Assembly: GCA_018303025.1 (NCBI GenBank)
Contig: JAGVYZ010000014.1
Span: 21,145 to 85,144 of the forward strand
Direction: 5' to 3'
Origin: Candidatus Woesearchaeota archaeon
GTDB taxonomy: Archaea > Nanobdellota > Nanobdellia > SCGC-AAA011-G17 > GW2011-AR20
Length of the DNA: 64,000 bases
Shown here: piece by piece, positions 727 to 51,949 of the stretch
How the letters are laid out: the number at the start of each line of letters is the position of its first letter
Numbering within the stretch: position 1 is the stretch's first letter
Notes under the pieces: model-generated
Told to the model about the DNA's origin: nothing
What the model saw: only the letters and a program-made list of their open reading frames with translations
Database searches by the model: none
Translations under genes and position numbers: made by a program

Positions 727-2025
727 ATGAAAAAAATTTATGTTGGAATGAGTGCGGATTTGATTCATCCAGGGCATTTGAATATTATTAATGTTGCAAA
801 AAGTCTTGGAGAAGTAACTGTTGGGTTATTGACTGATAGGGCAATAGCAAGCTACAAAAGACTTCCTTTTTTATCTTATGAGCAAAGAAAAATCATTGTT
901 GAAAACCTAAAAGGGGTTGATAATGTTATTGCACAAGAAACATTAGATTATGTTCCTAATTTAAAAAAATTAAAACCAGATTATGTTGTTCATGGAGATG
1001 ATTGGAAAACAGGTGTACAAAAAGAAGTCAGGCAAAGAGTAATTGATGCTTTAAATGAGTGGGGTGGCAAATTAATTGAACCAGAATATACTCCTGGAAT
1101 ATCTTCTACACAATTAAATCAAGGATTAAAAGAAATTGGTACAACTCCTGAAATTAGAATGAAGAGATTAAGGAGATTGCTTGAAGCAAAAGATATTGTG
1201 AGAATAATGGAAGCTCATAGTGGTTTGACAGGATTAATTGTTGAACATACTAAAGTAAAACAAGAAGGCAAAAATAAAGAATTTGATGGAATCTGGATAA
1301 GCAGTTTAACTGATTCAACTGTAAAAGGAAAGCCTGATATTGAATTCGTTGATTTGACTTCAAGATTGAATACAATACACCAAATATTAGAAGTAACAAC
1401 AAAACCATTAATTGTTGATGGAGATACAGGAGGTATTGTAGAACATTTTCCTTATATTGTTAAAACATTAGAAAGATTAGGGGTATCGGCTATAATAATT
1501 GAAGATAAGATTGGATTGAAAAAAAATTCATTATTTGGAACAGATGTAGAGCAAAATCAAGATTCAATTGAAAATTTCTGCAAAAAAATTTCTGCTGGAA
1601 AGAAAAGTCAGGTTACAAATGATTTTATGATTATTGCGAGAATTGAAAGCTTAATTTTAGGAAAAGGCATGGAAGATGCAATTAATAGAGCTAAAGAATA
1701 CATAAAAGCAGGAGCAGATGCTATTATGATTCATAGCAAAGAAAAAGAACCTGATGAAATATTAGAATTCTGCAAGAGATATAAAACATTTGAACAAAAA
1801 GTTCCTTTAGTTGCTGTTCCAACAACTTACCATAAAATTACTGAAAAAGAATTAAGCGATAATGGGGTAAATATTGTTATTTATGCTAATCATTTATTGA
1901 GAAGTGCATATCCTGCAATGGTTAAAACAGCTGAATCTATATTATTAAATGAAAGAGCTACTGAAAGTGAAGAGTATTGCATGCCTATAAAAGATATTTT
2001 AAATTTAATTCCAGGAGGAAACTAA
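727..2025 (+). CDS. pepM: Bifunctional cytidylyltransferase / phosphoenolpyruvate phosphomutase (Fom1-like CyTase-PepM fusion)
   Basis: The N-terminal ~130 aa carry the nucleotidyltransferase HxGH motif ([10 protein letters not shown]) typical of the glycerol-3-phosphate / phosphocholine cytidylyltransferase fold. The C-terminal domain carries the PEP mutase signature [13 protein letters not shown] plus the DGDTGG and RIESL motifs of the ICL/PEPM superfamily. Confidence 0.85.
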
Positions 2026-3150
2026 ATGTTAAGTTGCCTGGATTTTTATAATGAACTTACTCATAGGGGGATTAATTTTTTTGCAGGAGTGCCTGATTCA
2101 TTATTAAAAGATTTTTGTGCTTATATTACGGATAATGTTGATTCTAAAAATAACATTATTACTGCTAATGAAGGTGGGGCAATATCTTTATCATCTGGAT
2201 ATCATTTGGCAACTGGAAAAATACCCTTAGTATATATGCAAAATTCAGGACAAGGAAATGCCGTAAATCCTTTAACATCACTAGCAGACCCTGAAGTTTA
2301 TAAAATTCCTATGATTTTGCTTATAGGATGGAGGGGAGAGCCAGGAGTACATGATGAACCTCAACATGTTAAGCAGGGAAAAATAACATTAGATTTACTA
2401 GTTACATTAGGAATTCCTTACAGTATTTTACCACAAAGTTTAGAAGAAGCTAAAGTTTGTCTTAATGAAATGTTTGCTTCTTTAAAAGAAAAAGGTTTAC
2501 CTTATGCTCTAGTTGTAAGAAAGGATACTTTTGAACATTATGAACTAAAAAATAAATTAATAACAAACTATGAACTAGGAAGAGAAGATGCTTTAGATTT
2601 AGTTTTAAGTGAATTAAATGAGAATGATATAATTGTATCAACAACAGGCATGCTTTCAAGAGAACTTTTTGAATATAGAGAAAAAAGAAAAGAAGGACAT
2701 GAACAAGATTTCTTAACAGTTGGTTCAATGGGGCATGCATCACAAATTGCATTAGGAATTGCATTGCAAAAACCTGAAAGACAGGTATATTGTTTTGATG
2801 GTGATGGTGCTTTGATAATGCATATGGGCGCTTTAGCTATAACTGGTTCACAACAGGTTCCTAACTTCAGGCATGTTGTTTTCAATAATGGTAGTCATGA
2901 TTCTGTTGGAGGACAACCCACTGTTGGATTTAATATTGATATTACTTCAATAGCTAAATCATGTGGTTATAAAATTGCAATTAAAGCTGAGAATTCTGAA
3001 GAGTTAGAAAGAGGTTTGAGATTTTTAAGAGAAAATGAAGGACCTTCTTTATTGGAAATAAGAGTAAATAAAGGAGCAAGAAAAGATTTGGGAAGACCGA
3101 GTACAACACCTTTACAAAATAAAGAAGCATTTATGAAACACCTAAGATGA
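2026..3150 (+). CDS. ppd: Phosphonopyruvate decarboxylase (TPP-dependent), Fom2/Ppd-like
   Basis: Starts immediately after the pepM stop. At 374 aa it matches Ppd length. Has a thiamine-diphosphate binding motif (GDGALIMHMGALAI...NNGSHDS). Ppd is the obligate partner of PepM. Confidence 0.8.
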   Translation: MLSCLDFYNELTHRGINFFAGVPDSLLKDFCAYITDNVDSKNNIITANEGGAISLSSGYHLATGKIPLVYMQNSGQGNAVNPLTSLADPEVYKIPMILLIGWRGEPGVHDEPQHVKQGKITLDLLVTLGIPYSILPQSLEEAKVCLNEMFASLKEKGLPYALVVRKDTFEHYELKNKLITNYELGREDALDLVLSELNENDIIVSTTGMLSRELFEYREKRKEGHEQDFLTVGSMGHASQIALGIALQKPERQVYCFDGDGALIMHMGALAITGSQQVPNFRHVVFNNGSHDSVGGQPTVGFNIDITSIAKSCGYKIAIKAENSEELERGLRFLRENEGPSLLEIRVNKGARKDLGRPSTTPLQNKEAFMKHLR

Positions 3151-4271
3151 ACCAGGAAGAACATATTGGCAAAGGAAGTTTAAAAAAATTGCCTGAAATC
3201 ATAAAAAGATTTGGTTCGAAAAAAATATTTCTTGTTACTGGGAAAAAATCTTTTGAATCTTTAAATGGTAAAGAAATTATAGATAGTTTGAAAGAAAATT
3301 ATGAAATTACTCATTTTAATGATTTTTCAGTAAATCCTAATATTTATGATGTAAAGAAAGGTATTGAAGTTTTAAAAGAAAATAAATGTGATTTGGTTGT
3401 TGCAATAGGCGGAGGAAGTGTCATTGATATGGCTAAATCAATAAATATACTTGCTAATCAGGATGATGAAATAGAGAAGTATATAACTGATGAAAAAGAA
3501 ATAACAAAAAAAGGAAACAATTTAATTGCAATACCCACTACTTCTGGTTCTGGAAGTGAAGCAACTCATTTTGCTGTGATTTACATTGATAAAAAAAAGT
3601 TTTCTTTGAGCCATGAATTTATATTACCTATCTGTTCAATTGTAGATTCTGAATTAACAAAAAATCTGCCTAAAGAAATAGCTGCTTCATCTGGAATGGA
3701 TGCACTATGTCAATCTATTGAATCTTATTGGGCTGTTAATTCAAGCGATATTTCAAAAGAATATGCCAGAGATGCAATAAAATTAATTATTGAAAATCTG
3801 GAAAATTATGTTAATGAAAATAATGAAGAAAATCGAGAAATAATGGCAAAAGCTAGTCATCTTGCTGGAAAAGCAATTAATATTTCAAAAACAACTGCTG
3901 CGCATGCAATTTCTTATGGCTTTACTTCTTATTTAGGAATTCAACATGGTCATGCTGTTAGTTTAACATTGCCTTATTTTATAAAATTTAATAATGAAAT
4001 TAGTGAAGAGAGTAATAATGACAAAAGAGGAGTAGAATATGTAAAAAATACAATGAAAGAACTCTTTGATTTATTAAGCGTTAAAACATCAATGGAAGCA
4101 CAAAAGAAGATTATTAATTTAATGCAAAGAATAGGGCTTAAAACTGAATTAAGCGAATCTGCTGATAAAATAAACCTGATTTTAAATTCTGTTAGTTTAG
4201 AAAGACTTGAGAATAATCCCAGAAAAGTGAAAAGGGAAGATTTAATGGAGATATTAAAAAATATTCTCTAA
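3147..4271 (+). CDS. Iron-containing (group III) alcohol dehydrogenase; phosphonoacetaldehyde reductase-like (FomC/PhpC-like, makes 2-hydroxyethylphosphonate)
   Basis: ATGA overlap with the ppd stop indicates translational coupling. Has the Fe-ADH motif GGGSVIDMAKS and conserved His residues (HGHAVS). The position after pepM-ppd mirrors fom1-fom2-fomC. Confidence 0.7.
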   Translation: MNQEEHIGKGSLKKLPEIIKRFGSKKIFLVTGKKSFESLNGKEIIDSLKENYEITHFNDFSVNPNIYDVKKGIEVLKENKCDLVVAIGGGSVIDMAKSINILANQDDEIEKYITDEKEITKKGNNLIAIPTTSGSGSEATHFAVIYIDKKKFSLSHEFILPICSIVDSELTKNLPKEIAASSGMDALCQSIESYWAVNSSDISKEYARDAIKLIIENLENYVNENNEENREIMAKASHLAGKAINISKTTAAHAISYGFTSYLGIQHGHAVSLTLPYFIKFNNEISEESNNDKRGVEYVKNTMKELFDLLSVKTSMEAQKKIINLMQRIGLKTELSESADKINLILNSVSLERLENNPRKVKREDLMEILKNIL

Positions 4272-4308: not shown

Positions 4309-5814
4309 ATGGAACAGCCAAATGATTCATTGAAGGTTTTAGCCAAGGGTGCAATAATTATTTTAACATTAAGCGTCCTTACTAAAATCCTGAATTATGT
4401 ATACAAAATAATAGTTGCAAGAAGTTTGGGACCTGAAGGTTATGGCGTTATTATCTTAACTTCTGGAATTATAGGCTTTTGCGCTTCATTAGCTGTTTTT
4501 AATTTAAGTAGCGGTGTAGAAAGATATTTAAGTTATTATAGGGAAAAAGAAGGAAGAATAAAGAGTGTTACTATTTTTTCCATAAGATTTGTAATGATAA
4601 CAGGAGTTCTTATGTATATTTTGATTTTACTTTTTTACAAATATGTTAGTTTAGAAATTTTCAAAAATCCATTATTATTGAAAACACTGCCTATATTTGC
4701 CCTAGCTATTCCATTTTATGTTTTACTTGAAATAGTACTAGCTGCTTTCAGGGGTTTTGAAAAACAAGTATTTTATGGAATTTTTGGTGAATTTGGAAAG
4801 AGTTTTATTAAATTAGTAATAACTTCTGTATTTCTTTTATTGGGACTCGGAATTACAGGAATATCATGGGCTTATCCATTGACATTTTTTGTCCTTTTTT
4901 CATTTGGCTTTCTTGTTTTAACCAATAAGGTTTTCAATATTTTCAACAAAAAAATAAAAGAAGAAAATATGACTAAAGAGTTATTGAAATATTCTTACCC
5001 ATTATTTTTTGCAGGCACTCTTTGGATAGTTTCTAGCTGGATAGACAGTTTTATGATTGGCTACTTTAAACCAGAAGCAGACATTGGAATTTATAATGTG
5101 GCATTCTCTACTTCAAGTTTAATGACTATATTTTTCGTTGCATTAGGCAGTTTTTTCATCCCTGTAGTATCAAATCTTTTTTCAAAAGAAAAAATAGACG
5201 AAATTAAAGAGATTTACTCAAGAACTTGCAAATGGAATCTAATAATAGGGAGTATAATAATAGGATTTTTAATTATTTTTTCGCAATATATAATAAATAT
5301 TCTTTTTGGTATAGATTATAGCAATGGAAAAATACCTTTAATTATACTTTGTATTGGATTTTTTGTAATGATTGCTACTGGATATAGCGAGCAGTTGTTG
5401 ATGGCTGTTGGAAAAACAAAGCTTACTTTTTTTGCAAGATTGATTTCATTGATTTCCAATGTAACATTGAACATTATTTTAATACCAAAATATGGAATAA
5501 TAGGAGCTGCAGTTGCAACTTCTGCTTCTTTTATTGTATTACATGCATCTTTGCTGATCATGATAAACAAATTTTTAAGCATTAATCCATTTAATACTGG
5601 CTATTATAAAACACTTGTTTCTTTGGGAACTGCTTCATTAGCATCATTTGGAATATATCACTTCGTTAAACCTGGATTTTATACAATGTTGATATCCTTC
5701 TTTGTTTTTTCTGCTTTAATGATTAGTTTGATAATAATATTAAAAGTGCTTGACAAAGAAGATTTTTACATACTAAAAGCAATCCTAAGAAAAGTTGGAA
5801 TTAAAATTTTGTAA
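4309..5814 (+). CDS. MOP-superfamily polysaccharide/oligosaccharide flippase (Wzx/AglR-like)
   Basis: 501 aa, about 12-14 predicted TM helices, and the polysaccharide-biosynthesis-protein topology. Confidence 0.7.
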   Translation: MEQPNDSLKVLAKGAIIILTLSVLTKILNYVYKIIVARSLGPEGYGVIILTSGIIGFCASLAVFNLSSGVERYLSYYREKEGRIKSVTIFSIRFVMITGVLMYILILLFYKYVSLEIFKNPLLLKTLPIFALAIPFYVLLEIVLAAFRGFEKQVFYGIFGEFGKSFIKLVITSVFLLLGLGITGISWAYPLTFFVLFSFGFLVLTNKVFNIFNKKIKEENMTKELLKYSYPLFFAGTLWIVSSWIDSFMIGYFKPEADIGIYNVAFSTSSLMTIFFVALGSFFIPVVSNLFSKEKIDEIKEIYSRTCKWNLIIGSIIIGFLIIFSQYIINILFGIDYSNGKIPLIILCIGFFVMIATGYSEQLLMAVGKTKLTFFARLISLISNVTLNIILIPKYGIIGAAVATSASFIVLHASLLIMINKFLSINPFNTGYYKTLVSLGTASLASFGIYHFVKPGFYTMLISFFVFSALMISLIIILKVLDKEDFYILKAILRKVGIKIL

Positions 5815-6780
5815 AGAAAGAGAATCAGCTATAATTAAATTGCCCAATTTGTTTGGATGATATGGGTCATATTCATTTATTCTTAAATCTTGATATTTAT
5901 ATTTAGAGAATTCAGGCAATAAATCCAATGTTTTAAATCCAATTTCAGAAGCAATAAAAGTTACATTTTGATGAATGTAATTCCATTGATAATCATCAAG
6001 ATTGTATAACATAGGAACTATAACTAATAATGGCTTTTTACCTGTAATTTCTAAAGAGTTATTGTAAAAAATTTGCAAAGGCAGACTAACATCTTCACCC
6101 CATCTTTTTTTATCTAAAGAAATAGAATCAACTAAATTGTAGAAATCATCATTTTTTGACTGGATAGTGTAAATAGTATTTCTTAAAAGATAAAGAACTT
6201 TTATTTTATACAAGCTATTTTTTAATTTGCAATTTATTGGCAAATTGATAAGATTTATTTTACAATCTTCTTTTTTAACTATTGGTTCAAAATCATTTAA
6301 TGTGTATTCTAAAATTATAAAATCAGGGTTGTATTTTTTAACTTTATAAGTTAAATATTCAGCTTCCTGAAATGTGTTATATCCACCAAAACCAAAATTA
6401 ACAACTTCATAATTTTCCCCTAATTTTTTTTCTAATACTTTTGCAAAAGTATCTGATAGGTTAACACCTACACCATAAGAAACACTATCCCCTAAAACTG
6501 CTATTCTATAAATTTTGGGGGATTTTGTAATATTAATTTCATAATCTCTAAGACCATCACTATTAAGCTGATAAATCTCTTTTGAAAAACTGGGTGTTGG
6601 TTCAAAGGATAAAATTGAGTTATTTGACTCTTTGCCACCGAGGTCTCTTATATTTAATGCCAGTTGTTCATTTTTATCATAACTAATTAATCTTAAAGAA
6701 ATTTCAAACAAAAAAAGAACAATTAGGCAAAGAATTAAGTTAAATATAACAATTTTTATGGCCTTTTTCACTCTTTTCAT
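5785..6780 (-). CDS. SGNH/GDSL-family hydrolase (esterase/acyltransferase-like) with an N-terminal membrane anchor
   Basis: N-terminal TM helix followed by a GDS block (AVLGDSVSYGVG). Converges on the flippase with a 30-nt overlap. Confidence 0.55.
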   Translation of the reverse strand: MKRVKKAIKIVIFNLILCLIVLFLFEISLRLISYDKNEQLALNIRDLGGKESNNSILSFEPTPSFSKEIYQLNSDGLRDYEINITKSPKIYRIAVLGDSVSYGVGVNLSDTFAKVLEKKLGENYEVVNFGFGGYNTFQEAEYLTYKVKKYNPDFIILEYTLNDFEPIVKKEDCKINLINLPINCKLKNSLYKIKVLYLLRNTIYTIQSKNDDFYNLVDSISLDKKRWGEDVSLPLQIFYNNSLEITGKKPLLVIVPMLYNLDDYQWNYIHQNVTFIASEIGFKTLDLLPEFSKYKYQDLRINEYDPYHPNKLGNLIIADSLSLQNFNSNFS

Positions 6781-44022: not shown

Positions 44023-44023
44023 T

Positions 44024-44764
44024 TTACTTTTTCATTATAAACTTAAGTGGTGAATATAAGATTCTCAATTTTATTAAAGCTATAAACATTTGCATTGGAG
44101 CTTTTGCTATATTTAAATGAGTTCTTGAATCATCTGCCCATTTTATAGGAATTTCTTTAATTTTAGCATTAATTCGCTTCATTTGGTATAACAACTCTAT
44201 ATCAAAGGACCATTTGGTATACTCTAAATTTGGCAAAATTGATTTTATTGCTTCTTTTTTGAATAATTTACAGCCACATTGAGTATCATGATAATGAAGA
44301 CCCATAATTATTCTAACCAGTAAATTAAATATTCTACTTAAAATTCTCCTTGCTAATGGCTGCTCTAATTCAATCTCAGCGCCTTTAATCCAACGTGAAC
44401 CTATTACGCCATCATTATTATTGATATTATTAAGTAACCTAAAAAAAGATTCTGGAGGAGCACTATTATCTGCATCTACAAATCCAATTAAATTGCCTTC
44501 TGCTAGTTTAAAACCTTCTATTAATGCTCCTGCTTTTCCTATTTTTTTCTTGAATTCTTTAAAGACTAAATTTTCATGTTTCTTTCCTAATTTTTTTAGA
44601 ATATTGACTGTAGAATCAGAGCAATTATTTGGAATTACTATAATTTCATATTCTTTTATAGAGAACTTTTTATTAAAAAAAGAGAAATAAGAATTTAATG
44701 TTTTTTCTATTCTTTCTTCTTCATTGTATGCTGGAATTATTATTGAGAGTTTCATTTTTTTCAA
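44024..44764 (-). CDS. GT2 polyprenyl-phosphate sugar synthase (DPM1/AglD/AglJ-like)
   Basis: Starts MKLSIIIPAYNEEERIEKTL and has the DxD GFVDADNS. Separated by 1 nt from the upstream gene. Confidence 0.7.
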   Translation of the reverse strand: MKKMKLSIIIPAYNEEERIEKTLNSYFSFFNKKFSIKEYEIIVIPNNCSDSTVNILKKLGKKHENLVFKEFKKKIGKAGALIEGFKLAEGNLIGFVDADNSAPPESFFRLLNNINNNDGVIGSRWIKGAEIELEQPLARRILSRIFNLLVRIIMGLHYHDTQCGCKLFKKEAIKSILPNLEYTKWSFDIELLYQMKRINAKIKEIPIKWADDSRTHLNIAKAPMQMFIALIKLRILYSPLKFIMKK

Positions 44765-46001: not shown

Positions 46002-46981
46002 ATTAATAATGCGAAGAATATTTGTATTAAATAGGTGAAGTAGACGACTTGTCTCTCTGTAAATTTACCTGTTCTTGTAAAAAAATGAGTGATAGAATAA
46101 ATTTTATTTTCATGATAAGAACAAATTTTTCCATTTTTTTCATAACCATAGCTTTTTGCTCTGAATTTACTTCTTGCTTTTAATATAAATTCAATAAAGA
46201 AAGGTATTGAGATTATTATTGCTGCTTTTTCAATATTACCAAGAATAGCTATTATTGCTATTGAACCACCAATCAGGTAAGTTAAAGAATCTCCTGGAAA
46301 TATTTTTGCTGGATATTTATTATAAATATAAAATGCCAATAATGAAGAGAAAACAACTAATGCAAATAATGAACCCATTGTATTTGAATAAAAATAGGAG
46401 TATAATCCTAATGTTCCTGTGATTATTATTCCCAAACCAGTTTCTAAGCCATTTAAACCAGCTAACATATTAACCATGTTAGCTGCACCAACTATGCCTA
46501 TAGGAATTAGTAAAAGAGGATATAATAATCCAAAGTTTATTTCTCCAAAAAAAGGAAGAGCCATTATTGTGTCTCCTGCATTTATTACCATTAGAGGCAA
46601 AGCAGCTGCTAATGTCAATAAAGGTTTTTGCCACTGCTTTAAACCAGCTGTTTGTTCTTTTGATTTTTGAACCAATAAATCATCTATGAAACCAACTAAA
46701 GTTATCATAATCAAAGATGACATGCCTGCAAATAAATAAAGCAAATAGGATGTATCATTGTAAACAAAAGTTCTTATGAAGATATATAGATTTAAACCTA
46801 CAAAAACACCTGCCAGAACTGTTAAACCTCCTGATTGAGAAATAAGAGGTTTATCTTTTTTATTCTGGTCTTTTACAACTAAGTCTATTCTTCTTAAATA
46901 TCGAATAGTCCAGGGAGTTAGATATAGAACTACTAAAAAGCTTAGAATTGCACAGATTACAGGAATAAGGTATTGAACCAT
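45989..46981 (-). CDS. aglH: Polyprenyl-phosphate N-acetylhexosamine-1-phosphate transferase (MraY/WecA/AglH family), the initiating glycosyltransferase
   Basis: About 10 TM helices. Has the conserved cytoplasmic loop motif GAANMVNMLAGLNGLE, analogous to the NxxNxxDGxDGL of WecA/MraY. Confidence 0.7.
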   Translation of the reverse strand: MVQYLIPVICAILSFLVVLYLTPWTIRYLRRIDLVVKDQNKKDKPLISQSGGLTVLAGVFVGLNLYIFIRTFVYNDTSYLLYLFAGMSSLIMITLVGFIDDLLVQKSKEQTAGLKQWQKPLLTLAAALPLMVINAGDTIMALPFFGEINFGLLYPLLLIPIGIVGAANMVNMLAGLNGLETGLGIIITGTLGLYSYFYSNTMGSLFALVVFSSLLAFYIYNKYPAKIFPGDSLTYLIGGSIAIIAILGNIEKAAIIISIPFFIEFILKARSKFRAKSYGYEKNGKICSYHENKIYSITHFFTRTGKFTERQVVYFTYLIQIFFALLIWLI

Positions 46982-47000
46982 GTTTTAAAAATAAGAGATA

Positions 47001-47010: not shown

Positions 47011-47031
47011 GGTTTCTGAATAAGGAAATTT

Positions 47032-47268
47032 ATGAGAATTTTAAAGGCTTTAAAAAAATTGCACAAAGTTGTAACTGGGACAATAATTAATATAGTTAAT
47101 TTTATTTTATTACTTCCTGTTTATTTTATAGGGGTGGGAATAACTTCCATTATTGCTAAATTGTTTAAGAAAGGATTTTTGAATTTAAAAAAAGAAAACA
47201 AGAAAAGTTATTGGACAAATAATGAAGTAAAGAAAGGAGAGATAGAAGATTATTATAGGCAGTTTTAG
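47032..47268 (+). CDS. Small membrane protein, unknown function
   Basis: 78-aa ORF with one TM helix, directly upstream of the carbamoyltransferase. Confidence 0.35.
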   Translation: MRILKALKKLHKVVTGTIINIVNFILLLPVYFIGVGITSIIAKLFKKGFLNLKKENKKSYWTNNEVKKGEIEDYYRQF

Positions 47269-47276
47269 GAGAAAAA

Positions 47277-49007
47277 ATGTATATACTAGGGGTAAGTTGC
47301 TTTTACCATGATTCAAGTGCTGTATTATTAAAAGATGGAAAAATAATAGCTGGTGCTGAAGAAGAAAGATTTACTAGAAAGAAGCATGATGCTGGTTTTC
47401 CCATAAATGCAATAAAATACTGCTTGAAAGAAGCTGGAATTACTGTAAAAGAACTTGATTATGTTGGATTTTATGAAAAGCCATTTTTGAAATTTGAAAG
47501 ATTATTGAGCCAGCATCTGGAAATGTTTCCTTTCTCATACTGGTCTTTTTACAAATCAATTCCATCATGGATAAATGAAAAATTGAGAATACCTCATTTA
47601 ATGAAGAAGAAATTAGGATATAAAGGAGATATATTATTTATTCCTCATCATCTTGCTCATGCTGCTAGCTCTTATTTGGTATCTAATTTTAATGAAGCAA
47701 CTATAATGACAATTGATGGTGTAGGTGAGTGGGCAACTACTACTTATGGATATGGAAAAGGAAATGAGATTAAATTAGAAAAAGAAATTATTTTTCCTGA
47801 TTCTGTTGGTTTATTGTATAGTACTGTAACTGCATGGATTGGGATGAGTGTTAATAATTCAGAATATAAAGTAATGGGATTAGCACCATATGGAAAACCA
47901 ACTTATTATGATAAATTAAAGAAAGTTATTGATATAAAAGAGGATGGAAGTTATAAGATGGACATGAGTTATTTTGATTATCATTACAAATTAAAAATGC
48001 CTAGCAAGAAGTTCATTGAAGAATTTGGGTCTATTAGAACTCAAAAAGAAGAAGTAAATCAAAAGCACAAAGACATGGCTGCTTCTGTTCAGAAAATAAC
48101 AGAAGAGATTTATTTTAAAATTTTAAATAATGCTTATAAAAAATACAAATGCAAGAATTTATGCGTAGCTGGTGGTGTTGGTCTTAATAGTGTTGCAAAT
48201 GGAAAGATAACAAAAAATACACCTTTCAAAAATATTTACATTCAGCCTGCTTCAAGCGACTCAGGAACAAGCATTGGAGTAGCCTGCTACATTTATAATG
48301 TAATTTTAGGCAACAAAGAAAGATTTTACATGGATAATGCTTATTTAGGGCCTTCTTATTCTTATGAGGAAATAAAGAAATTTTTGGATGATAATGAAAT
48401 TAAGTATAAGATTTTGAAAGAAGAAGAAATTGCTAAAAAAACAGCTAAACTAATTAGAGATGAAAATGTTATTGGATGGTTCCAAGGAAGAATGGAGTGG
48501 GGACCCAGAGCTCTTGGAAACAGAAGCATATTATCTGATGCTACTAATCCTAAAATGAAAGATATTTTGAATTTGAAAGTAAAGCACAGGGAAAATTTTC
48601 GGCCCTTTGCTCCGGTTATTTCTAAAGAGGATGTTCATGAATGGTTTGACATTGATCAAGATGAAGAATTGTTCATGTTATTTGTTTATCCTGTAAAAAA
48701 AGATAAAAGAAAAATAATACCTTCTGTAACTCATGTTGATGGTTCTGGAAGATTGCAGACTATCTCTAAAGAGCAGAATGAAAGATATTATAGCGTTATA
48801 AAAGAATTTGAAAAGCTTTCTGGAGTACCAATACTTATTAATACTTCTTTTAATATTAGGGGAGAACCTATTGTATGCAATCCTTATAATGCTTATAAGT
48901 GCATGATGGGAACTGGAATTGATTATTTAGTTATGGACAGATTTTTGATTAAAAGAGAAGATAATTTGAAAGATGCCTGGGATAGTGAAAAAATAGCTAA
49001 AGATTAA
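47277..49007 (+). CDS. Carbamoyltransferase (NodU/CmcH/NovN family)
   Basis: Has the N-terminal YILGVSCFYHDSSAVLL...GAEEERFTRKKHDAGFP signature and a C-terminal carbamoyltransferase domain. 576 aa. Confidence 0.8.
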   Translation: MYILGVSCFYHDSSAVLLKDGKIIAGAEEERFTRKKHDAGFPINAIKYCLKEAGITVKELDYVGFYEKPFLKFERLLSQHLEMFPFSYWSFYKSIPSWINEKLRIPHLMKKKLGYKGDILFIPHHLAHAASSYLVSNFNEATIMTIDGVGEWATTTYGYGKGNEIKLEKEIIFPDSVGLLYSTVTAWIGMSVNNSEYKVMGLAPYGKPTYYDKLKKVIDIKEDGSYKMDMSYFDYHYKLKMPSKKFIEEFGSIRTQKEEVNQKHKDMAASVQKITEEIYFKILNNAYKKYKCKNLCVAGGVGLNSVANGKITKNTPFKNIYIQPASSDSGTSIGVACYIYNVILGNKERFYMDNAYLGPSYSYEEIKKFLDDNEIKYKILKEEEIAKKTAKLIRDENVIGWFQGRMEWGPRALGNRSILSDATNPKMKDILNLKVKHRENFRPFAPVISKEDVHEWFDIDQDEELFMLFVYPVKKDKRKIIPSVTHVDGSGRLQTISKEQNERYYSVIKEFEKLSGVPILINTSFNIRGEPIVCNPYNAYKCMMGTGIDYLVMDRFLIKREDNLKDAWDSEKIAKD

Positions 49008-49049
49008 ATTTATAAAAGAAGCTTTTCTTCTAGTAAAAGAAAAAATAAA

Positions 49050-49211
49050 ATGTCACACAATAAATCAATAATATTAGAATTTTGGGATTTTTTAAAAATA
49101 AGAAAAAAATGGTGGCTATTGCCAATAATTATAATGCTAATATTGGTAGGCGTATTAATAGTATTTGGGCAAAGTTCAGCTATTAGTCCATTTATTTATG
49201 CTTTAATTTAA
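49050..49211 (+). CDS. Small single-TM protein of the type commonly found next to NodU-family carbamoyltransferases (DUF5989-like)
   Basis: 53-aa ORF I translated by hand: MSHNKSIILEFWDFLKIRKKWWLLPIIIMLILVGVLIVFGQSSAISPFIYALI. It is below the ORF-track size cutoff. Confidence 0.4.
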   Translation: MSHNKSIILEFWDFLKIRKKWWLLPIIIMLILVGVLIVFGQSSAISPFIYALI

Positions 49212-51949
49212 ATGTCATATACTCTTTTGTCTAAAACTTCTCTACCATAGAAATATTCTGGAACTTCTAGATTATTAGGATATGAAATTGACCAAATTTT
49301 TAATGGACCCCTTAACCCTGCTCCTGGATAAATTGCTAGAGGCATTTGAGTTTCATCAGAATATGCTACTTTGAAATTTTCTGTTTCTTGCCCAAATAAA
49401 TATAATCTTGTGAATTGGGTATTGTAAACTACAGGCGATAGATAGATTAAAGAACCTAACATATTAACCTGGCCATTATTGCTTATTTGTGGAATAATTT
49501 GAATACATGCATCTATACCACCTGTAAACTTATATTCTTTAGGTTGTACACCTAATGCTTTGGAACCATAAAATATACAGTTTATTGGGATATTTGATTG
49601 CTGACCATTGTAAACAATAACCATTGTTGGCTGTTCGAATTCTACTTGCGAGTTATTAGCGTTATTTACTATTGGAACAAAGAAACCTGCTACACCTGCT
49701 GCATTTTTAGGATATAGCTTATCTTGATAAATTATATCGTGGTCTATTGCTGTTCCACCAGTGTACAAATAGACTGTTGAATTTCTTGTTTCTTTAACTT
49801 GAGAAGGATCTAAATTATAATTTGTAATCCAGGAATACCTGTCATAATTAACATCAGAACCTATTGACGAGAAAGCTGGATATTTACCTATTTCATCTGA
49901 AATTATTAATAAATGAGTTGCATTATGTGCTTTTAAAAATTCTAATGCTTCTGTATCATTGCTTCCCATTAAAACATGACGTCCTGTCCAATGATTCCAG
50001 GCACCAATTGTATTACCACCATCTGTTATTGTTGCTCTTTTGCCACCTGTTTGGACTAAGTAACCATAGTCCCACCAATGTGAAAAAACAGCATTTTCAT
50101 TTGTATTATCCCGAACCCATTTCATTGCTAATTGCCATTGTTGATTGTAAGTTGTTCCTGAACCTGCATTTTGAGCTTTGGAGGATTCATAATAATTCAA
50201 TAAATAACCATTTGAGTTTACTATAGGTATTTCTTTTATTACTGGAATCTGTGCCATTGCATTTCCGAAAGGCCAGAAAAAAATCATTAAAAATAAAGCT
50301 AAGACTGTTATGTAAAATATTTTATATGTTAATTCTTTTTCATTCTCTTTTACTTTTTGATATAAGTATATTGAACCAGTATAAATAAAATAAGCGGCTA
50401 AGACCATTGCTACTGAAGTGAAAATATAAACCAGCCTTATTGCACTTCTTGCAGCTATTGCCATTATAATAAACCAAGCGATTATAAAAATTTCTGATTT
50501 ATTTAAGGAAATTATTTTTTCATATTCCTCTTGATCATTTAAATAAGATTTAATGTAAATATAAATAAAATAACATGCAAAGAAAAGGAAAGAGCCTATA
50601 TATAAGAAATTAGAGATAAAATTATCTCCGTTGAAGGTTGAATCTGCCTTATATCTGCTGAATAAAAACAGGAAAATAAATATTGTGTAAGATACTGTAA
50701 GTTTTAATCTGTTTGATTTTGACAAATGCTTGACTAAATGATAAAATAGAATAACAGAGCCAATTATGATTGATAATAAGAAAAACATTCCACCGAAATG
50801 ACCAACCCAGTCAGATACATAAGGCTGATGATTTTCAGCTACTGTTAAAACCCATCTTCCTGTTGCAAAAGGTTTTGTAACATCTGTAAAAATATCTTTT
50901 AATTTGTCTATTAAATATAGAGGACCATTGAAAAGAATTAAAAATATTAGGCCTAAAAATCCAAAAATTATGAAGCTATTTACACTTTTTGGAAGTTTTG
51001 AATACTTTTCTACAAATTGATTAACTGTTCTATGTTCAATTATGAAGTGTCTGAAGAAACCTGCTAAAATGCTTAGTAAGCATAAGCTAGTTGTTACTGA
51101 ATTTAATAATGTTCCAAAGTTTATTCTTCCTGGGAAAAAAAGATTCATTGTTATTATTGAAAGAATAAACCATAATGTATAAGAATAAAGGTTTTCTTTT
51201 GAGAACTTATCCAGAATGAGTTCTATTAATGCAAACAATCCAAAAATTAAGAAGATAAAATTAACTCCACCCCAAACAGCTCCTGTTGCTCCTGTTAAGA
51301 TTCCTGCTAAAACTGCATTAATTAAGGAGAATAATAAATTCTTTGATTTCCATGATGAAACAAAAAAATAAAAAGAAGCGAAGAATAACAAGGTAGCTAA
51401 TGACTCTTTATCTGTAATACCAGACATTGTCCTAAATAAAAAAGCAGGCGAAAATGATAAAAAAGCTGTTGCTATCAATGCTATTTTTTTGTTATTGAAC
51501 AATTTGTCAACTAAGAGATAAAAAAACAATGCTGCAAATAAGAACATTATTGCCGGGAAAATCATGAAAGCATAATCGAAGGTTATTGAAGAATCAAATA
51601 AATGCATAAATTGGTAAGTAAATACAATTACATGTGTGAAAAAATTAAATTCGCCTACACCTGTAAAACCTAGAGGATATGAACGTAATTTATCTATTGC
51701 TGGTAAAGCATCATTTTCCAAAAGGTCCTGGGAATATCTAAATACAAGCATTGCATCTGGGTCAGCAGGCATATAAGTATTAGATGTTGTATCCATTAAT
51801 TGTGGAATATTCTGGATTCTTATGAAAAAACCCATTAAAATTATTATTAATAAAATCCCATAAAAAATCCAAGATTTCTTATTAATTAAAAAGTTTTTCA
51901 CGTCTTCTTTTCTTTGTTCTAATTCATCTGGCATTTTATTTTTAGACAA
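49208..51949 (-). CDS. aglB: Archaeal oligosaccharyltransferase AglB (STT3 family)
   Basis: 913 aa. A 13-TM N-terminal domain is followed by the hallmark WWDYGY motif (SHWWDYGYLVQTG) and a large C-terminal periplasmic domain. Confidence 0.85.
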   Translation of the reverse strand: MSKNKMPDELEQRKEDVKNFLINKKSWIFYGILLIIILMGFFIRIQNIPQLMDTTSNTYMPADPDAMLVFRYSQDLLENDALPAIDKLRSYPLGFTGVGEFNFFTHVIVFTYQFMHLFDSSITFDYAFMIFPAIMFLFAALFFYLLVDKLFNNKKIALIATAFLSFSPAFLFRTMSGITDKESLATLLFFASFYFFVSSWKSKNLLFSLINAVLAGILTGATGAVWGGVNFIFLIFGLFALIELILDKFSKENLYSYTLWFILSIITMNLFFPGRINFGTLLNSVTTSLCLLSILAGFFRHFIIEHRTVNQFVEKYSKLPKSVNSFIIFGFLGLIFLILFNGPLYLIDKLKDIFTDVTKPFATGRWVLTVAENHQPYVSDWVGHFGGMFFLLSIIIGSVILFYHLVKHLSKSNRLKLTVSYTIFIFLFLFSRYKADSTFNGDNFISNFLYIGSFLFFACYFIYIYIKSYLNDQEEYEKIISLNKSEIFIIAWFIIMAIAARSAIRLVYIFTSVAMVLAAYFIYTGSIYLYQKVKENEKELTYKIFYITVLALFLMIFFWPFGNAMAQIPVIKEIPIVNSNGYLLNYYESSKAQNAGSGTTYNQQWQLAMKWVRDNTNENAVFSHWWDYGYLVQTGGKRATITDGGNTIGAWNHWTGRHVLMGSNDTEALEFLKAHNATHLLIISDEIGKYPAFSSIGSDVNYDRYSWITNYNLDPSQVKETRNSTVYLYTGGTAIDHDIIYQDKLYPKNAAGVAGFFVPIVNNANNSQVEFEQPTMVIVYNGQQSNIPINCIFYGSKALGVQPKEYKFTGGIDACIQIIPQISNNGQVNMLGSLIYLSPVVYNTQFTRLYLFGQETENFKVAYSDETQMPLAIYPGAGLRGPLKIWSISYPNNLEVPEYFYGREVLDKRVYDI

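Follow-up and report, generated by a model that had tools for sequence, protein, structure and literature searches.

Fom1, Fom2 and FomC together produce CMP-activated 2-hydroxyethylphosphonate (2-HEP-CMP), which Fom3 methylates (PMC8158854; PMC6697681), and phosphonates have been proposed to be present on cell-surface glycoproteins of marine microbes (PMC8931226). The function of the AprD4/AprD3 pair has also been described (PMC5461906). Here we analysed a 64,000-nt stretch of DNA (the window) from a 113-kb contig of a Rifle-aquifer Woesearchaeota (DPANN, groundwater). Its locus combines known kinds of gene sets, an agl cluster and a phosphonoglycan cassette, and its most distinctive content is the phosphonate pathway together with radical-SAM chemistry. 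Taken as a whole, the sequence is probably best explained as a multi-module cell-envelope glycosylation locus with phosphonate decoration.

Positions 727-51949 carry 45 large and 2 small genes (ORF listing; Pfam and NCBIfam scans of all ORFs of at least 100 aa), with a coding fraction of 97.4% and a median intergenic gap of 1 nt. The sequence-only reading regarded nearly every gene as glycan-related; glycan or phosphonate-pathway domains are indeed present in 42 of the 45 large ORFs, but 727-4271 encodes a phosphonate pathway rather than sugar genes. The ten gene overlaps that it listed are all real and same-strand, and there are four more (21196/21199, 22056/22059, 22615/22640 and 23285/23292). 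The locus extends ~15 kb past the left end of the window, so that ~51 kb of a total of ~67 kb lie inside it. Because Woesearchaeota genomes are estimated at ~0.9-1.4 Mb (PMC8421398), 51-67 kb corresponds to roughly 4-7% of the genome, and to about 5-7% for a genome size near 1 Mb. The domains, the NCBI label "Candidatus Woesearchaeota archaeon" on identical proteins (MBS3140744-MBS3140802), and flanks encoding archaeal Rpo7, Spt4, S24e and S27e besides RuBisCO/IF-2B genes agree with a contiguous surface-glycosylation locus in a small-genome DPANN archaeon. A chimeric contig, which would undermine this view, is contradicted by a uniform tetranucleotide correlation (0.983-0.993 for each 8-kb block against the rest; 0.990 for island against flank) and by independent assemblies from several samples that reproduce the locus at 99.7-100%, one of them a 72.9-kb contig covering the island, AglB and SpoIIM. 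In one metagenome contig (L096), by contrast, unrelated genes take the place of AglB next to the carbamoyltransferase gene.

Absent from the earlier reading was a predicted complete phosphonate (C-P bond) pathway at the left end of the island, which we list with a nearby candidate transferase gene.

727..2025 (+): Fom1-like cytidylyltransferase-PEP mutase fusion (PF01467, PF13714; TIGR02320 416.6 bits, cut-off 319.6); a ten-residue motif at residue 259 and HPGH at residue 14
2026..3150 (+): phosphonopyruvate decarboxylase, Ppd/Fom2-like (TIGR03297 503.5 bits, cut-off 312.5)
3147..4271 (+): Fe-dependent alcohol dehydrogenase, PhpC/FomC-like (Pfam Fe-ADH 156 bits; TIGR03405 Phn_Fe-ADH 198 bits, under the cut-off of 424)
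22615..23292 (+): CDP-alcohol phosphotransferase family membrane enzyme (PF01066 46 bits)

By its domains and motifs, the fusion is expected to form the C-P bond and to CMP-activate the phosphonate. Of 80 genomes with the fusion, 73 have a Ppd homologue beside it, and synteny with Ppm-Ppd extends to the Fe-ADH gene in 65 of the 80 loci; the dehydrogenase is likely a phosphonoacetaldehyde reductase yielding 2-hydroxyethylphosphonate. Together the trio should convert PEP via 2-hydroxyethylphosphonate into its CMP-activated form (CMP-HEP). B12 radical SAM homologues lie near the cassette in 8 of 10 DPANN loci versus 1 of 70 others (Fisher p = 1.4e-8), often directly adjacent to it, with genes for CDP-OH_P_transf, LPG_synthase_TM and Wzx proteins nearby. 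A B12 radical SAM enzyme of the present locus may, by analogy to Fom3, C-methylate the phosphonate. Domain scans found no LicD-like transferase at the locus. The protein encoded at 22615..23292 retains all four Asp of the signature DvtDGslARx8IxxxDxxxD and is a candidate for the transfer of the CMP-phosphonate or of a CDP-alcohol; a second family member is encoded just upstream of the window. An enzyme of this family may transfer the phosphonyl group to the glycan or to an intermediate carried on a lipid. Alternatively, such enzymes could serve in lipid synthesis or in the addition of CDP-activated alcohols.

Seven radical-SAM enzymes, likewise overlooked earlier, are encoded at the locus; the window holds four of B12-radical-SAM type, one AprD4-like and one SPASM enzyme. 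All radical-SAM assignments and most of those to sugar pathways are best matches that lie under NCBIfam cut-offs.

6832..8412 (+): B12-binding radical SAM, class B methyltransferase type (Pfam B12-binding and Radical_SAM; CPHRCNFC); no NCBIfam equivalog reached
17218..18513 (+): B12-binding radical SAM (Pfam; CPFNCFYC)
35860..36978 (-): radical SAM/SPASM (Radical_SAM 84 bits and SPASM; CNLKCSHC; best PDB match SkfB)
38668..40056 (-): B12-binding radical SAM (Pfam; CPYHCTFC)
40075..40905 (-): short SDR reductase (Epimerase 73 bits), overlapping the next gene by 28 nt
40878..42215 (-): AprD4-like radical SAM, 1,2-diol dehydratase type (CPYSCRFYC, residues 199-207; NF033070 126 bits, under the cut-off of 500)

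The best PDB match of the last protein is AprD4 (6FD2, E 7e-28), with GCPYxCRFYC aligned, and the next match scores just 33 bits. Its non-canonical cluster motif, CX3CX3C, is common to both proteins. We propose that the overlapping SDR is its AprD3-like reductase partner.

The locus also encodes the precursor supply for unusual sugars and enzymes for their tailoring.

9666..10376 (+): sugar-1-phosphate nucleotidyltransferase, nearest glucose-1-P cytidylyltransferase (best match TIGR02623, 238 bits, cut-off 300)
10367..11350 (+): NDP-hexose 4,6-dehydratase, nearest CDP-glucose 4,6-dehydratase (TIGR02622 226.5 bits, cut-off 278)
14942..15916 (-): SDR epimerase/dehydratase (Epimerase 160 bits; 72% identity to a conserved-block gene of a related contig, L102)
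19234..19983 (-): sugar-1-phosphate nucleotidyltransferase (NTP_transferase 143 bits; 66% identity to the L102 counterpart)
20036..21199 (+): DegT/ArnB-type PLP aminotransferase (DegT 366 bits; NF008687 331 bits, under the cut-off of 375; SFHAVK motif, Lys195)
27752..28510 (-): nucleotidyltransferase-like protein (NTP_transferase 65 bits, partial match)
28565..29569 (+): GHMP sugar kinase, anomeric sugar-1-kinase type (GHMP N and C domains)
29563..30312 (+): sugar-1-phosphate nucleotidyltransferase (NTP_transferase 116 bits; best NCBIfam match a mannose-1-P guanylyltransferase model, 147 bits, cut-off 440)
5785..6780 (-): membrane-anchored SGNH/GDSL esterase or acyltransferase (Lipase_GDSL_2 45 bits; one N-terminal TM helix)
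21196..22059 (+): SAM methyltransferase (Methyltransf_31/12/23)
22056..22640 (+): SAM methyltransferase (Methyltransf_23/25)
23285..23950 (+): SAM methyltransferase (Methyltransf_11 64 bits)
47277..49007 (+): NodU/CmcH/TobZ-type O-carbamoyltransferase (Carbam_trans_N 292 bits, Carbam_trans_C 244 bits)
49050..49211 (+): DUF5989 small protein, 3' of the carbamoyltransferase gene (PF19451 79.5 bits)
47032..47268 (+): small ORF of 78 aa, called in every assembly (L093-L096); no significant Pfam match

In the cytoplasm, the four or five nucleotidyltransferases, the GHMP kinase, the 4,6-dehydratase, the SDRs and DegT would supply unusual activated sugars, and the SAM methyltransferases, B12-radical-SAM enzymes, AprD4-like dehydratase with its overlapping SDR, and carbamoyltransferase would tailor them. 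The SGNH protein and the carbamoyltransferase are as previously described. Two specific routes fared less well. The pair at 9666/10367 and the DegT lysine (K195) exist, but a pathway to CDP-4-amino-4,6-dideoxyhexose is weakly supported at best, with matches under cut-off and genes in separate operons. Similarly, the GHMP kinase and nucleotidyltransferase described as an HddA/HddC-like pair are present at 28565/29563, but a heptose route lacks support: with 231 bits, the kinase falls far under the HddA cut-off of 600 and is not an HddA equivalog, and the NCBIfam scan found neither GmhA nor GmhB at the locus.

The machinery for initiation, export and transfer, as claimed earlier, includes two flippases, an AglH-like initiator and AglB.

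4309..5814 (+): Wzx/MurJ-type flippase (Pfam Polysacc_synt, MatE, MurJ; ~12-14 TM helices in a hydropathy scan)
44721..46001 (-): second Wzx-type flippase (Polysacc_synt 69.5 bits; ~12-14 TM helices)
45989..46981 (-): initiating polyprenyl-phosphate HexNAc-1-phosphate transferase, AglH/WecA/MraY family (PF00953 116 bits; 9 TM helices)
49208..51934 (-): AglB/STT3 oligosaccharyltransferase, 908 aa from ATG (STT3 45.6 bits; WWDYG and DPD motifs)

In the PDB, AglB matches STT3 and the C-terminal domains of archaeal AglB proteins, and it shares 48% identity and synteny with the AglB of another Woesearchaeota contig (L103). Acceptor candidates lie at the left end of the locus, where a 663-aa surface protein with 36 sequons (5.4 per 100 aa, or 6.3 over the first-seen 567 residues, vs a mean of 0.77) stands beside an 803-aa S-layer-like protein (S_layer_C).

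The Pfam count of glycosyltransferases is 8 GT2 and 4 GT4, a total of 12 that falls short of the at least 14 reported from the sequence. The three GT-C enzymes of that reading are found as PMT_2 proteins at 12533, 32271 and 42244, but the total of GT-C-fold enzymes is five, including AglB and a member of a new DPANN-only family at 23941-25431.

8450..9634 (+): GT4 (Glycos_transf_1 116 bits)
11343..12536 (-): GT4 (Glycos_transf_1 146 bits, Glyco_transf_4)
25483..26583 (+): GT4 (Glycos_transf_1 122 bits)
26624..27760 (+): GT4 (Glycos_transf_1 108 bits)
12533..14170 (-): GT-C, PMT_2/ArnT-like (PMT_2 39.9 bits; ~12-16 TM helices), paired with the next gene
14201..14938 (-): small soluble GT2, polyprenyl-phosphate sugar synthase-like (ArnC/PgfS/AglJ-like; PF00535 117 bits; best NCBIfam matches ArnC and PgfS, under cut-off; 55.5% identity to the 18515 gene)
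18515..19237 (-): small GT2, polyprenyl-phosphate sugar synthase-like (PF00535 93 bits; best NCBIfam PgfS, ArnC)
23941..25431 (-): fifth GT-C-fold glycosyltransferase, PTPS_related-like family (structure model, homologues)
31361..32236 (+): GT2 adjoining the next gene (Glyco_tranf_2_3 75 bits)
32271..33803 (+): GT-C, PMT_2/Alg9-like (PMT_2 54 bits, Glyco_transf_22)
33872..34864 (+): GT2 (PF00535), three C-terminal TM helices (hydropathy scan)
34861..35838 (+): GT2 (PF00535 102 bits)
36968..37948 (-): GT2 (PF00535 116 bits)
37950..38657 (-): small GT2, AglJ/dolichyl-phosphate hexose transferase-like (TIGR04182 AglJ 122 bits, cut-off 325)
42244..44022 (-): GT-C, PMT/PMT_2 (PMT_2 75 bits, PMT 41 bits), paired with the next gene
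44024..44755 (-): small GT2, polyprenyl-phosphate sugar synthase-like (PF00535 97 bits; best NCBIfam PgfS, ArnC, AglJ), 243 aa from the start called by gene callers

The protein encoded at 23941..25431 has no Pfam match of its own; some of its 63 homologues carry PF10131, and every source name given for them is archaeal or DPANN. Its AF2 model (pLDDT 94.9) has STT3, AglB, AftD, AftA, DPY19, ALG12 and ArnT as top Foldseek matches (TM 0.55-0.62). These are GT-C enzymes, and on the strength of the model the protein is a GT-C-fold glycosyltransferase, DPANN-specific among named homologues, and not a Wzy polymerase.

Three genes were assigned no function by the domain, PDB and fold searches as run for each.

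1..587 (-): N-terminal 195 of 320 aa of a conserved protein running off the window (complete gene in L001; no Pfam match)
16017..17051 (-): soluble 344-aa protein; sole match a xylose-isomerase-like TIM barrel (20.7 bits, under the threshold of 31.1), no PDB match
30314..31360 (+): DPANN-type archaeal orphan family with a weak Nudix-like fold (homologues, structure model)

A homologue of the first (46% identity, L103) lies between cytidylyltransferase-like and 4,6-dehydratase-like genes. For the third, each source name given among 24 homologues is an archaeal hypothetical protein, the best fold match of the AF2 model (pLDDT 94.9) is NUDT7 (E 1e-3, TM 0.32), and the family has no glycan context in other genomes.

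The earlier view of an exceptional island devoted to one surface glycan finds at most weak support in either respect, and the role in host attachment suggested for the glycan is speculative. Related Woese/Nanoarchaeota also have gene-dense glycan regions beside AglB or the same GT-C family, across the 18-21 kb compared. Conserved among them are the DegT/MT/CDP-OH/GT-C block and the AglB/SpoIIM/IF-2B/RuBisCO position. Variable islands occupy the corresponding AglB position in relatives, where the phosphonate cassette often recurs along with B12 radical SAM genes, so the island seems to be a trait of the lineage and not a unique feature. As to a single glycan, the ~14 strand runs, two flippases, two CDP-alcohol phosphotransferases and four lipid-P-sugar/GT-C units point to several assembly lines with late outer-face additions.

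Read from domains, motifs and gene order, the working of these assembly lines would be as follows. Glycan assembly on dolichyl phosphate would begin with the AglH-like enzyme and continue with elongation by GT4 and GT2 enzymes, and a Wzx-type flippase would export the glycan for transfer by AglB onto Asn in the sequons of the 663-aa and 803-aa surface proteins. Each of the three PMT_2 GT-Cs adjoins a same-strand GT2, and these pairs may use lipid-phosphate-monosaccharide donors to add sugars at the outer face. The same task may fall to an Arn-like module (NTP-transferase, SDR, DegT, methyltransferases, small GT2 and the DPANN-specific GT-C). The predicted product for this archaeon is a surface coat that would be methylated, deoxygenated, carbamoylated and phosphonylated.

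The first three genes of the island (the run of glycan and phosphonate genes at 727-51949 of the window; genes are named here by their start coordinates) make up a phosphonate pathway, which the sequence-only reading had overlooked. The gene at 727-2025 encodes in one ORF a PF01467 cytidylyltransferase with an HPGH motif fused to a PEP mutase (Ppm; PF13714), in which the EDKXXXXXNS-type motif is present as [10 protein letters not shown], and its product passes the TIGR02320 model (416.6 bits; cut-off, 319.6). The gene at 2026-3150 encodes a phosphonopyruvate decarboxylase (Ppd) that passes TIGR03297 (503.5 bits; cut-off, 312.5), and 3147-4271 encodes a member of the Pfam Fe-ADH family scoring 198 bits against the 424-bit cut-off of TIGR03405. 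As judged from domain order, this architecture is that of Fom1, Fom2, and FomC, which turn PEP into CMP-2-hydroxyethylphosphonate (CMP-HEP) in Streptomyces (PMC6697681; PMC8158854).

In a scan of 185,579 species genomes, the Ppm fusion was recovered at 67-79% identity from Nanoarchaeota, Woesearchaeota, Pacearchaeota, and Thermoplasmata, and among bacteria from Ignavibacteria, Bacteroidales, Clostridium, Xanthomonas, Treponema, Patescibacteria, and others; the best match among GTDB representatives, a Nanoarchaeota MAG, is 79% identical. Across the best 80 Ppm loci, the only conserved neighbors were Ppd (73/80) and the Fe-ADH gene, which adjoins Ppm-Ppd in 65/80. The trio is thus a mobile three-gene cassette, and the remaining island genes are not a fixed "system." The fusion is unusually well conserved between archaea and very diverse bacterial phyla, unlike its neighbors in these loci (L013-L092), which implies frequent horizontal transfer of the cassette. 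Many DPANN loci have a further stand-alone cytidylyltransferase gene immediately upstream of the fusion. Overall, Ppm has been found in just 1.6% of RefSeq archaeal genomes (PMC8942020); a fused cytidylyltransferase occurs on ~24% of bacterial Ppm, and the HEP branch accounts for 8.5% of phosphonate neighborhoods (PMC6697681, PMC8942020).

An ORF map of the island gave 45 large and 2 small genes, 97.4% coding sequence, and a median gap of 1 nt. Pfam and NCBIfam scans of all 57 large ORFs of the window identified glycan or phosphonate biosynthesis domains in 42 of the 45 large island genes and, together with the map, bore out the outline of island content proposed earlier: AglB at 49208-51934 on the minus strand (PF02516, with WWDYG present), an AglH-like initiator (PF00953, AglH/WecA-type; 45989-46981, minus strand), two Wzx-type flippases (Polysacc_synt; 4309 and 44721), three GT-C enzymes (PMT_2; 12533, 32271, and 42244), a carbamoyltransferase (47277), an SGNH protein (5785), and a Lys-containing DegT protein (20036), the lysine being K195. 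The ten gene overlaps reported in the sequence-only reading are all real and same-strand, and four further ones join DegT-MT-MT-CDP-OH_P_transf-MT (20036-23950) into a single coupled unit, so that the island has 14 in total. Its count of at least 14 GT2/GT4 genes was too high, as Pfam gives 8 GT2 and 4 GT4 genes, or 12. tRNA and Rfam scans of the window returned no matches and thus no tRNA or integrase-type island boundary. The small GT2s at 14201-14938 and 18515-19237 are paralogs (55.5% identical), which points to a probable duplication within the island. For 16017, Pfam gave only a sub-threshold TIM-barrel match and a PDB search gave none. Gene 30314 belongs to an orphan family of 24 proteins, for which all source names given are archaeal (Woese-, Aenigm-, and Nanoarchaeota). 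A homolog search, a confident AF2 model, and a fold search revealed weak Nudix-like similarity and a RESWEEGIF stretch resembling a Nudix box. Elsewhere, members of this family are not adjacent to glycan genes, and in another genome one adjoins a canonical NUDIX gene.

The window was recovered on metagenome contigs of the Rifle (Colorado) aquifer from several samples and with several assemblers, the longest being 113,456 bp, and its proteins correspond to NCBI MBS3140744 to MBS3140802, labeled "Candidatus Woesearchaeota archaeon." A chimeric assembly had been named earlier as the finding that would undo the interpretation of the island, and the test for it was negative, both by composition and by independent assemblies. 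The alternative that the island is a chimera, or recent foreign (bacterial) DNA non-native to the archaeon, could draw on the 67-79% identity of the Ppm fusion to proteins of many bacterial phyla and on an alternative junction with a transposase in L096, another assembly of the region. It is contradicted by a GC content of 26-29% in every 8-kb block and a tetranucleotide correlation of 0.983-0.993 between each 8-kb block and the rest (0.990 for the island versus the right flank), by independent contigs that reproduce both edges and the interior of the window at 99.7-100% identity, by the synteny of the AglB flank in another Woesearchaeote, and by the named homologs of the 23941 and 30314 families, all of which are archaeal and mostly from DPANN. 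In addition, a 72.9-kb contig spans the island through AglB into SpoIIM. Chimerism is essentially excluded, and the alternative as a whole is hardly credible.

Two assemblies differ locally from the window. L096, a JGI contig from sample 3300009285, is 100% identical to window 45778-49032, to 25 nt beyond the carbamoyltransferase stop; past the junction at 49032, it carries unrelated genes (a DDE_3 transposase, HTH, and NDK) where the window has DUF5989 and AglB. The difference reflects either a strain rearrangement affecting the right end of the island or an assembly artifact. In positions 1-2429 of L100 (scaffold ANAN16, SAMN03842448), compared with window 1-2313, an 87-bp stretch of Ppm (window 1734-1820) is duplicated, with 17 mismatches and 4 gaps near the duplication, and gene calling splits it into 384 + 35 aa. 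L100 either carries a disrupted variant of Ppm or reflects an error in scaffolding.

The island extends past the left end of the window, giving an envelope locus of ~67 kb that is bounded, in window coordinates, at about -15.5 kb and +51.9 kb. On L001, a contig reaching left of the window, the upstream genes are as follows, in order moving left:

320-aa protein, no assigned function
HD-domain protein
B12 radical SAM enzyme
second CDP-OH_P_transf protein
another B12 radical SAM enzyme
LPG_synthase_TM protein, methyltransferase, and GT2
663-aa protein carrying 36 N-x-S/T sequons; it has a signal peptide, a linker rich in Thr and Pro, and a membrane anchor at the C terminus
stand-alone cytidylyltransferase, methyltransferase, and GT2
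803-aa signal-peptide protein with a Pfam S_layer_C match (25.9 bits; threshold, 23.9)

Over its full length, the 663-aa protein has 5.4 sequons per 100 aa versus a mean of 0.77 for the proteins of the window; the adjacent secreted proteins carry 36 (the 663-aa protein) and 13 N-x-S/T sequons. The HD-domain protein (202 aa; PF01966 just above threshold; L001 8266-8874, at a distance of ~0.4-1.0 kb to the left of the window) is flanked by a B12 radical SAM gene and Ppm, and a 45% identical homolog is similarly placed in a Nanoarchaeota phosphonate locus (L104 18847-19563). It could be a CMP-phosphonate hydrolase, analogous to FomD, or a PhnZ-like enzyme.

To the right, the island is flanked by archaeal housekeeping genes (IF-2B-like, RuBisCO, Rpo7, Spt4, S24e, and S27e). 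Positions 52042-56808 encode SpoIIM, an IF-2B-like protein (putative ribose-1,5-bisphosphate isomerase), and the RuBisCO large subunit. A nucleotide-salvage RuBisCO pathway has been described in DPANN, and the IF-2B-like and RuBisCO pair fits it. The order AglB/SpoIIM/IF-2B/RuBisCO is mirrored in L103, from another Woesearchaeote (identity, 48-52% for the first three genes, with AglB at 48%, and 35% for RuBisCO), and there AglB is followed by a glycan gene set differing from that of the window. The position of AglB is conserved and the gene content variable, as expected for surface-glycan loci; haloarchaeal agl clusters are likewise variable (PMC11407970). Just right of the island, 56865-57794 and 58160-59086 encode two secreted or anchored proteins that are possible additional AglB substrates: one has 8 sequons (2.6 per 100 aa) and a lamin-tail domain, and the second belongs to no family. 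Further right, at 59335-60722, a RimK-type ATP-grasp ligase gene overlaps a small aspartyl-protease-like (RimB-like) gene, a pair found in every assembly, and at 61674-62673, the first 11 nt of Rpo7 (RNA polymerase subunit E') are shared with a PIN_9-domain gene. Rpo7 is followed by Spt4, S24e, and S27e (L007).

Seven radical SAM genes are present, five in the window and two more in the 10 kb to its left. Those at 6832, 17218, and 38668 and both upstream genes encode B12-binding class B enzymes with CX3CX2C motifs. None of these five reaches an NCBIfam equivalog: with the BchE, HpnJ, PhpK, and Sden_1168 P-methyltransferase models, their scores lie at 110-176 bits and the cut-offs at 480-600. 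In the set of 80 Ppm loci, homologs of these enzymes are present in 8/10 DPANN loci versus 1/70 others (Fisher p = 1.4e-8). In DPANN they often directly adjoin Ppm, together with CDP-OH_P_transf, LPG_synthase_TM, and Wzx genes, and L104, a further Nanoarchaeota contig, has the same pattern of Ppm and B12 radical SAM genes. Mainly because of this association, we suspect that an island B12 radical SAM enzyme carries out a Fom3-like C-methylation of CMP-HEP. The gene at 35860-36978 encodes a SPASM radical SAM enzyme with no substrate assigned.

The remaining radical SAM enzyme, encoded at 40878-42215, has no B12 Pfam match and shares with AprD4 the sequence GCPYxCRFYC, including a CX3CX3C motif in which its CPYSCRFYC aligns with CPYPCRFYC. 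AprD4 is the radical SAM 1,2-diol dehydratase of apramycin biosynthesis, with AprD3 as reductase (PMC5461906; PMC12931638). AprD4 is by far the best PDB match of 40878 (6FD2; E 7e-28; next match, 33 bits). Identity is ~35% over 242 residues, and the NF033070 (AprD4) model is not passed (126.3 bits; cut-off, 500), the HpnJ score being slightly higher at 149.5. The gene overlaps by 28 nt that of a 276-aa SDR (40075), so that it is translationally coupled to a nucleotide-binding reductase-type protein, and by analogy this would parallel AprD4 with AprD3. Unlike AprD4, it lies in an archaeal surface-glycan context rather than an aminoglycoside cluster. In a representative library of 1.84 billion proteins, CX3CX3C is found in the ten closest relatives of 40878 and in 50 of the top 150, and the wider family mixes CX3CX3C and CX3CX2C members. 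This family is sizable and largely unexplored.

Each PMT_2 GT-C gene is located directly beside a same-strand GT2 gene (14201/12533, 31361/32271, and 44024/42244). The small GT2s 14201, 18515, 37950, and 44024 have ArnC, PgfS, AglJ, PpgS, and Dol-P-hexose transferases as their best NCBIfam matches, all below cut-off. The gene at 23941-25431 encodes a polytopic protein of 496 aa with no Pfam match and 63 homologs; the source names given are all archaeal/DPANN, and some homologs match PF10131 (PTPS_related). Its AF2 model (pLDDT 94.9) matches STT3, AglB, PglB, AftD, AftA, DPY19, ALG12, and ArnT in Foldseek with probability 1.0, and the Asp of the first extracytoplasmic loop, D41, does not vary among 54 sequences. 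On the strength of the model, 23941 is assigned as a fifth GT-C-fold enzyme. Its match to GT-C enzymes ruled it out as a Wzy polymerase; 23941 is the sole unassigned polytopic protein, and Pfam scans of the window found no Wzy polymerase or Wzz/chain-length regulator domains. In the Nanoarchaeota contig L104, a 23941-type gene lies directly beside the Ppm cassette. In L102, from another Rifle population, the block NTP-transferase/small GT2/SDR/DegT/MT/CDP-OH_P_transf/MT is kept together with the 23941 GT-C gene at 48-72% identity. This conserved block reads like an Arn-type pathway, with a putative ArnB-like aminotransferase, ArnC-like GT2, and GT-C transferase.

Two nucleotide-sugar routes proposed earlier from sequence were not borne out by the NCBIfam scores. 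The supposed HddA/HddC heptose pair (28565/29563) scores 231 and 119 bits against cut-offs of 600 and 300, and there is no GmhA (SIS) or GmhB in the island; a generic sugar-1-kinase and nucleotidyltransferase salvage pair is more likely than a heptose route. A CDP-4-amino-4,6-dideoxyhexose route is not supported either, because the 9666/10367 pair and DegT fall below their best-matching NCBIfam cut-offs (238 versus 300, 226.5 versus 278, and 331 versus 375, respectively) and lie in different operons. In L103, on the other hand, genes of these kinds stand side by side.

By comparison to known systems, the island resembles archaeal agl clusters, such as that of Haloferax volcanii, in its WWDYG-type AglB, initiating lipid-phosphate transferase, Wzx-like flippase, GT2/GT4 enzymes, and sugar-nucleotide enzymes beside genes of target glycoproteins. 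In AglB (49208), WWDYG falls at residue 625 when the ORF is read from its TTG start, and a DPD motif lies in the first loop, and its PDB matches are STT3 and archaeal AglB. The agl cluster of Hfx. volcanii has roughly 15 genes, and the island, with at least 45, is several times larger. Its phosphonate pathway, carbamoyltransferase, CDP-alcohol phosphotransferases, and seven radical SAM enzymes are additions to the agl repertoire. In Hfx. volcanii, the final sugar is added after transfer from its own dolichyl-phosphate carrier, the "sole example" according to a review (PMC11407970); the same logic is proposed here for the GT2/GT-C pairs, and the island has four such lipid-phosphate-sugar/GT-C units. 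Gene content of agl clusters varies among strains (PMC11407970), as it apparently does in the island. The bacterial Arn (ArnB/ArnC/ArnT) and Gtr (GtrB/GtrC) systems, which use lipid-linked monosaccharides for decoration, share with these units a DegT/ArnB-type aminotransferase and a small GT2, nearest to ArnC/PgfS/PpgS/Dol-P-hexose transferases, adjacent to a GT-C enzyme, an arrangement that occurs four times. The scores are all below equivalog cut-offs, and unlike in Arn and Gtr, the acceptor is presumably a protein- or lipid-bound glycan and not lipid A or O-antigen, and one GT-C enzyme comes from an uncharacterized family seen in DPANN-labeled archaea only.

The phosphonate genes resemble the early fosfomycin pathway of Streptomyces in combining a Ppm fusion whose N-terminal domain is PF01467, Ppd, Fe-ADH, and B12 radical SAM enzymes in one locus. 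Unlike in fosfomycin clusters, FomD (DUF402) and Fom4/HppE epoxidase domains are absent from all ORFs of the window and the upstream 15 kb, and because a glycosylation island surrounds the genes, the CMP-phosphonate would presumably serve as a transfer donor and not a transient intermediate. HEP phosphonoglycan clusters (Nitrosopumilus maritimus methylphosphonate, Stackebrandtia nassauensis HEP-exopolysaccharide, and bacterial Pnt) are similar in their Ppm-Ppd-Fe-ADH branch, nucleotidyl activation fused to Ppm, glycan neighbors, and cell-surface target (PMC8942020; PMC6697681; PMC8931226). Unlike in those clusters, no LicD-like phosphotransferase is present at the locus, and Pfam, NCBIfam, and PDB searches, which included no dedicated MpnS model, gave no candidate for an MpnS/HEPD-like enzyme, including among 16017, 30314, and the 320-aa ORF. 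Further differences are the DPANN host and a cassette accompanied by B12 radical SAM enzymes, CDP-alcohol phosphotransferases, and an HD-domain protein. The CDP-OH_P_transf protein 22615 keeps all four Asp of the DxxDGxxAR...GxxxDxxxD signature, with Ile replacing Gly; in the upstream protein (L001 6058-6747), Asn replaces the fourth Asp. From its sequence, 22615 is the best candidate to transfer the phosphonyl group onto a hydroxyl of a glycan or lipid-linked intermediate.

We propose that this is an AglB-centered envelope glycosylation locus with a phosphonate supply, a reading that we consider somewhat probable given the predicted functions of its genes. Nucleotidyltransferases, a kinase, a dehydratase, SDRs, and DegT would make activated sugars, which SAM and B12 radical SAM methyltransferases, the AprD4-like/SDR pair (deoxygenation), and the carbamoyltransferase would tailor. 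A dolichol-linked glycan would be begun by the PF00953 enzyme, lengthened by GT4 and GT2 enzymes, and flipped by a Wzx-type protein, and sequon-rich surface proteins would receive it via AglB. Outside, the GT2/GT-C units would attach more sugars from lipid-phosphate-monosaccharide donors. The cassette would yield CMP-HEP, perhaps methylated, and a CDP-alcohol phosphotransferase would move the phosphonyl group to the glycan or a lipid-linked intermediate.

The destination of the phosphonate could instead be a phosphonolipid head group, in which case a CDP-alcohol phosphotransferase would couple CMP-HEP to a lipid alcohol, or CDP-archaeol to the HEP hydroxyl, the LPG_synthase_TM (MprF-flippase-like) protein would flip the lipid outward, and the rest of the island would perform ordinary N-glycosylation. 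In eukaryotes, CMP-AEP-dependent phosphonolipid synthesis is carried out by the CDP-alcohol phosphotransferase family; the locus has two such PF01066 enzymes, 22615 and the one upstream in L001, and LPG_synthase_TM adjoins the upstream gene and, in L029 (one of the 80 Ppm loci), Ppm. The best NCBIfam matches of 22615 are lipid enzymes, the archaetidylinositol-phosphate synthases, but at 50 bits it is far below their cut-off of 180, and the upstream paralog lacks the fourth Asp. To our knowledge, moreover, DPANN archaea generally lack lipid synthesis, and the cassette sits among flippase, GT, and sugar-nucleotide genes both here and in relatives. We regard a phosphonolipid product as rather unlikely.

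The sequence-only reading had assigned the whole 50 kb to a single elaborate surface glycan central to host attachment. The contiguity and dense packing of the genes with their 14 same-strand overlaps, the single AglB and single PF00953 initiator, and the homogeneous composition along the island would agree with one product, whereas two flippases, two CDP-alcohol transferases, four lipid-phosphate-sugar/GT-C units, and ~14 strand runs would not. Modules also recur separately: the DegT/MT/CDP-OH/GT-C block is found alone in L102, and the Ppm cassette alone in ~70 bacterial genomes. A single glycan serving host attachment is thus an unlikely product of the island. Far less plausible is a secondary-metabolite role for some of the genes, in which the Fom1/2/C, B12 radical SAM, AprD4-like, TobZ-like carbamoyltransferase, and DegT enzymes would make a diffusible phosphonate or aminoglycoside-like compound instead of surface decoration. 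The Fom1/2/C and B12 radical SAM set does mirror early fosfomycin steps, and the AprD4-like enzyme and NodU/TobZ-type carbamoyltransferase mirror apramycin and tobramycin tailoring. Besides the lack of Fom4/HppE and FomD, however, Pfam scans identified neither a 2-deoxy-scyllo-inosose synthase nor the resistance genes and exporters usually seen in clusters of this kind, and the genes are ringed by twelve GTs, five GT-C enzymes, flippases, and AglB. Moreover, Ppm fusions of this type are tied mostly to cell-surface tailoring (PMC6697681).

The component classes of the proposed envelope locus are all known: agl clusters, HEP phosphonoglycan cassettes with a Ppm-fused cytidylyltransferase, AprD4-type dehydratases, and Arn-type units. 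New are the combination and the host, a DPANN archaeon with a phosphonate cassette inside an AglB island. The companions of the DPANN cassette are B12 radical SAM enzymes and often CDP-alcohol phosphotransferases, with the uncharacterized GT-C family in three genomes examined. Our literature search found no description of phosphonate or glycosylation genes for Woesearchaeota, and a comparative genomics paper on this group makes no mention of glycosylation, S-layers, phosphonates, or radical SAM enzymes (PMC8421398). The island had been called exceptionally large. Its size is notable, ~5-7% of a ~1-Mb genome, taking Woesearchaeota genome estimates of ~0.9-1.4 Mb from the literature (PMC8421398) and not from the source MAG. 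It is probably not exceptional for the lineage, because every related locus fetched was glycan-dense over its full 18-21 kb.

DPANN archaea depend on other cells or live attached to them, and their surface chemistry is almost unknown. The locus predicts testable chemistry, namely N-glycans with phosphonate esters and C-methyl, deoxy, amino, and carbamoyl groups. An explanation put forward for the marine phosphonate pool is phosphonate on glycoproteins (PMC8931226), and an archaeal counterpart in an anoxic aquifer would broaden this picture. A Fom1-type cassette with B12 radical SAM enzymes in DPANN also provides a natural setting for asking about the origin of the fosfomycin pathway. As a tentative proposal, Woese-, Nano-, and Pacearchaeota might coat their glycoproteins of the S-layer or surface, or else a lipid-linked intermediate, with a hydroxyalkyl-phosphonate that is C-methylated and made by a Fom1-Fom2-FomC-Fom3-like route, in which the CMP product is not hydrolyzed but transferred by the CDP-alcohol-phosphotransferase family and the DPANN-labeled GT-C family. 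If true, the early fosfomycin pathway would be a branch recruited from a surface-phosphonylation cassette that is widespread and moves horizontally, and symbionts with reduced genomes would need to scavenge cobalamin to run up to five or six B12 radical SAM steps of coat synthesis.
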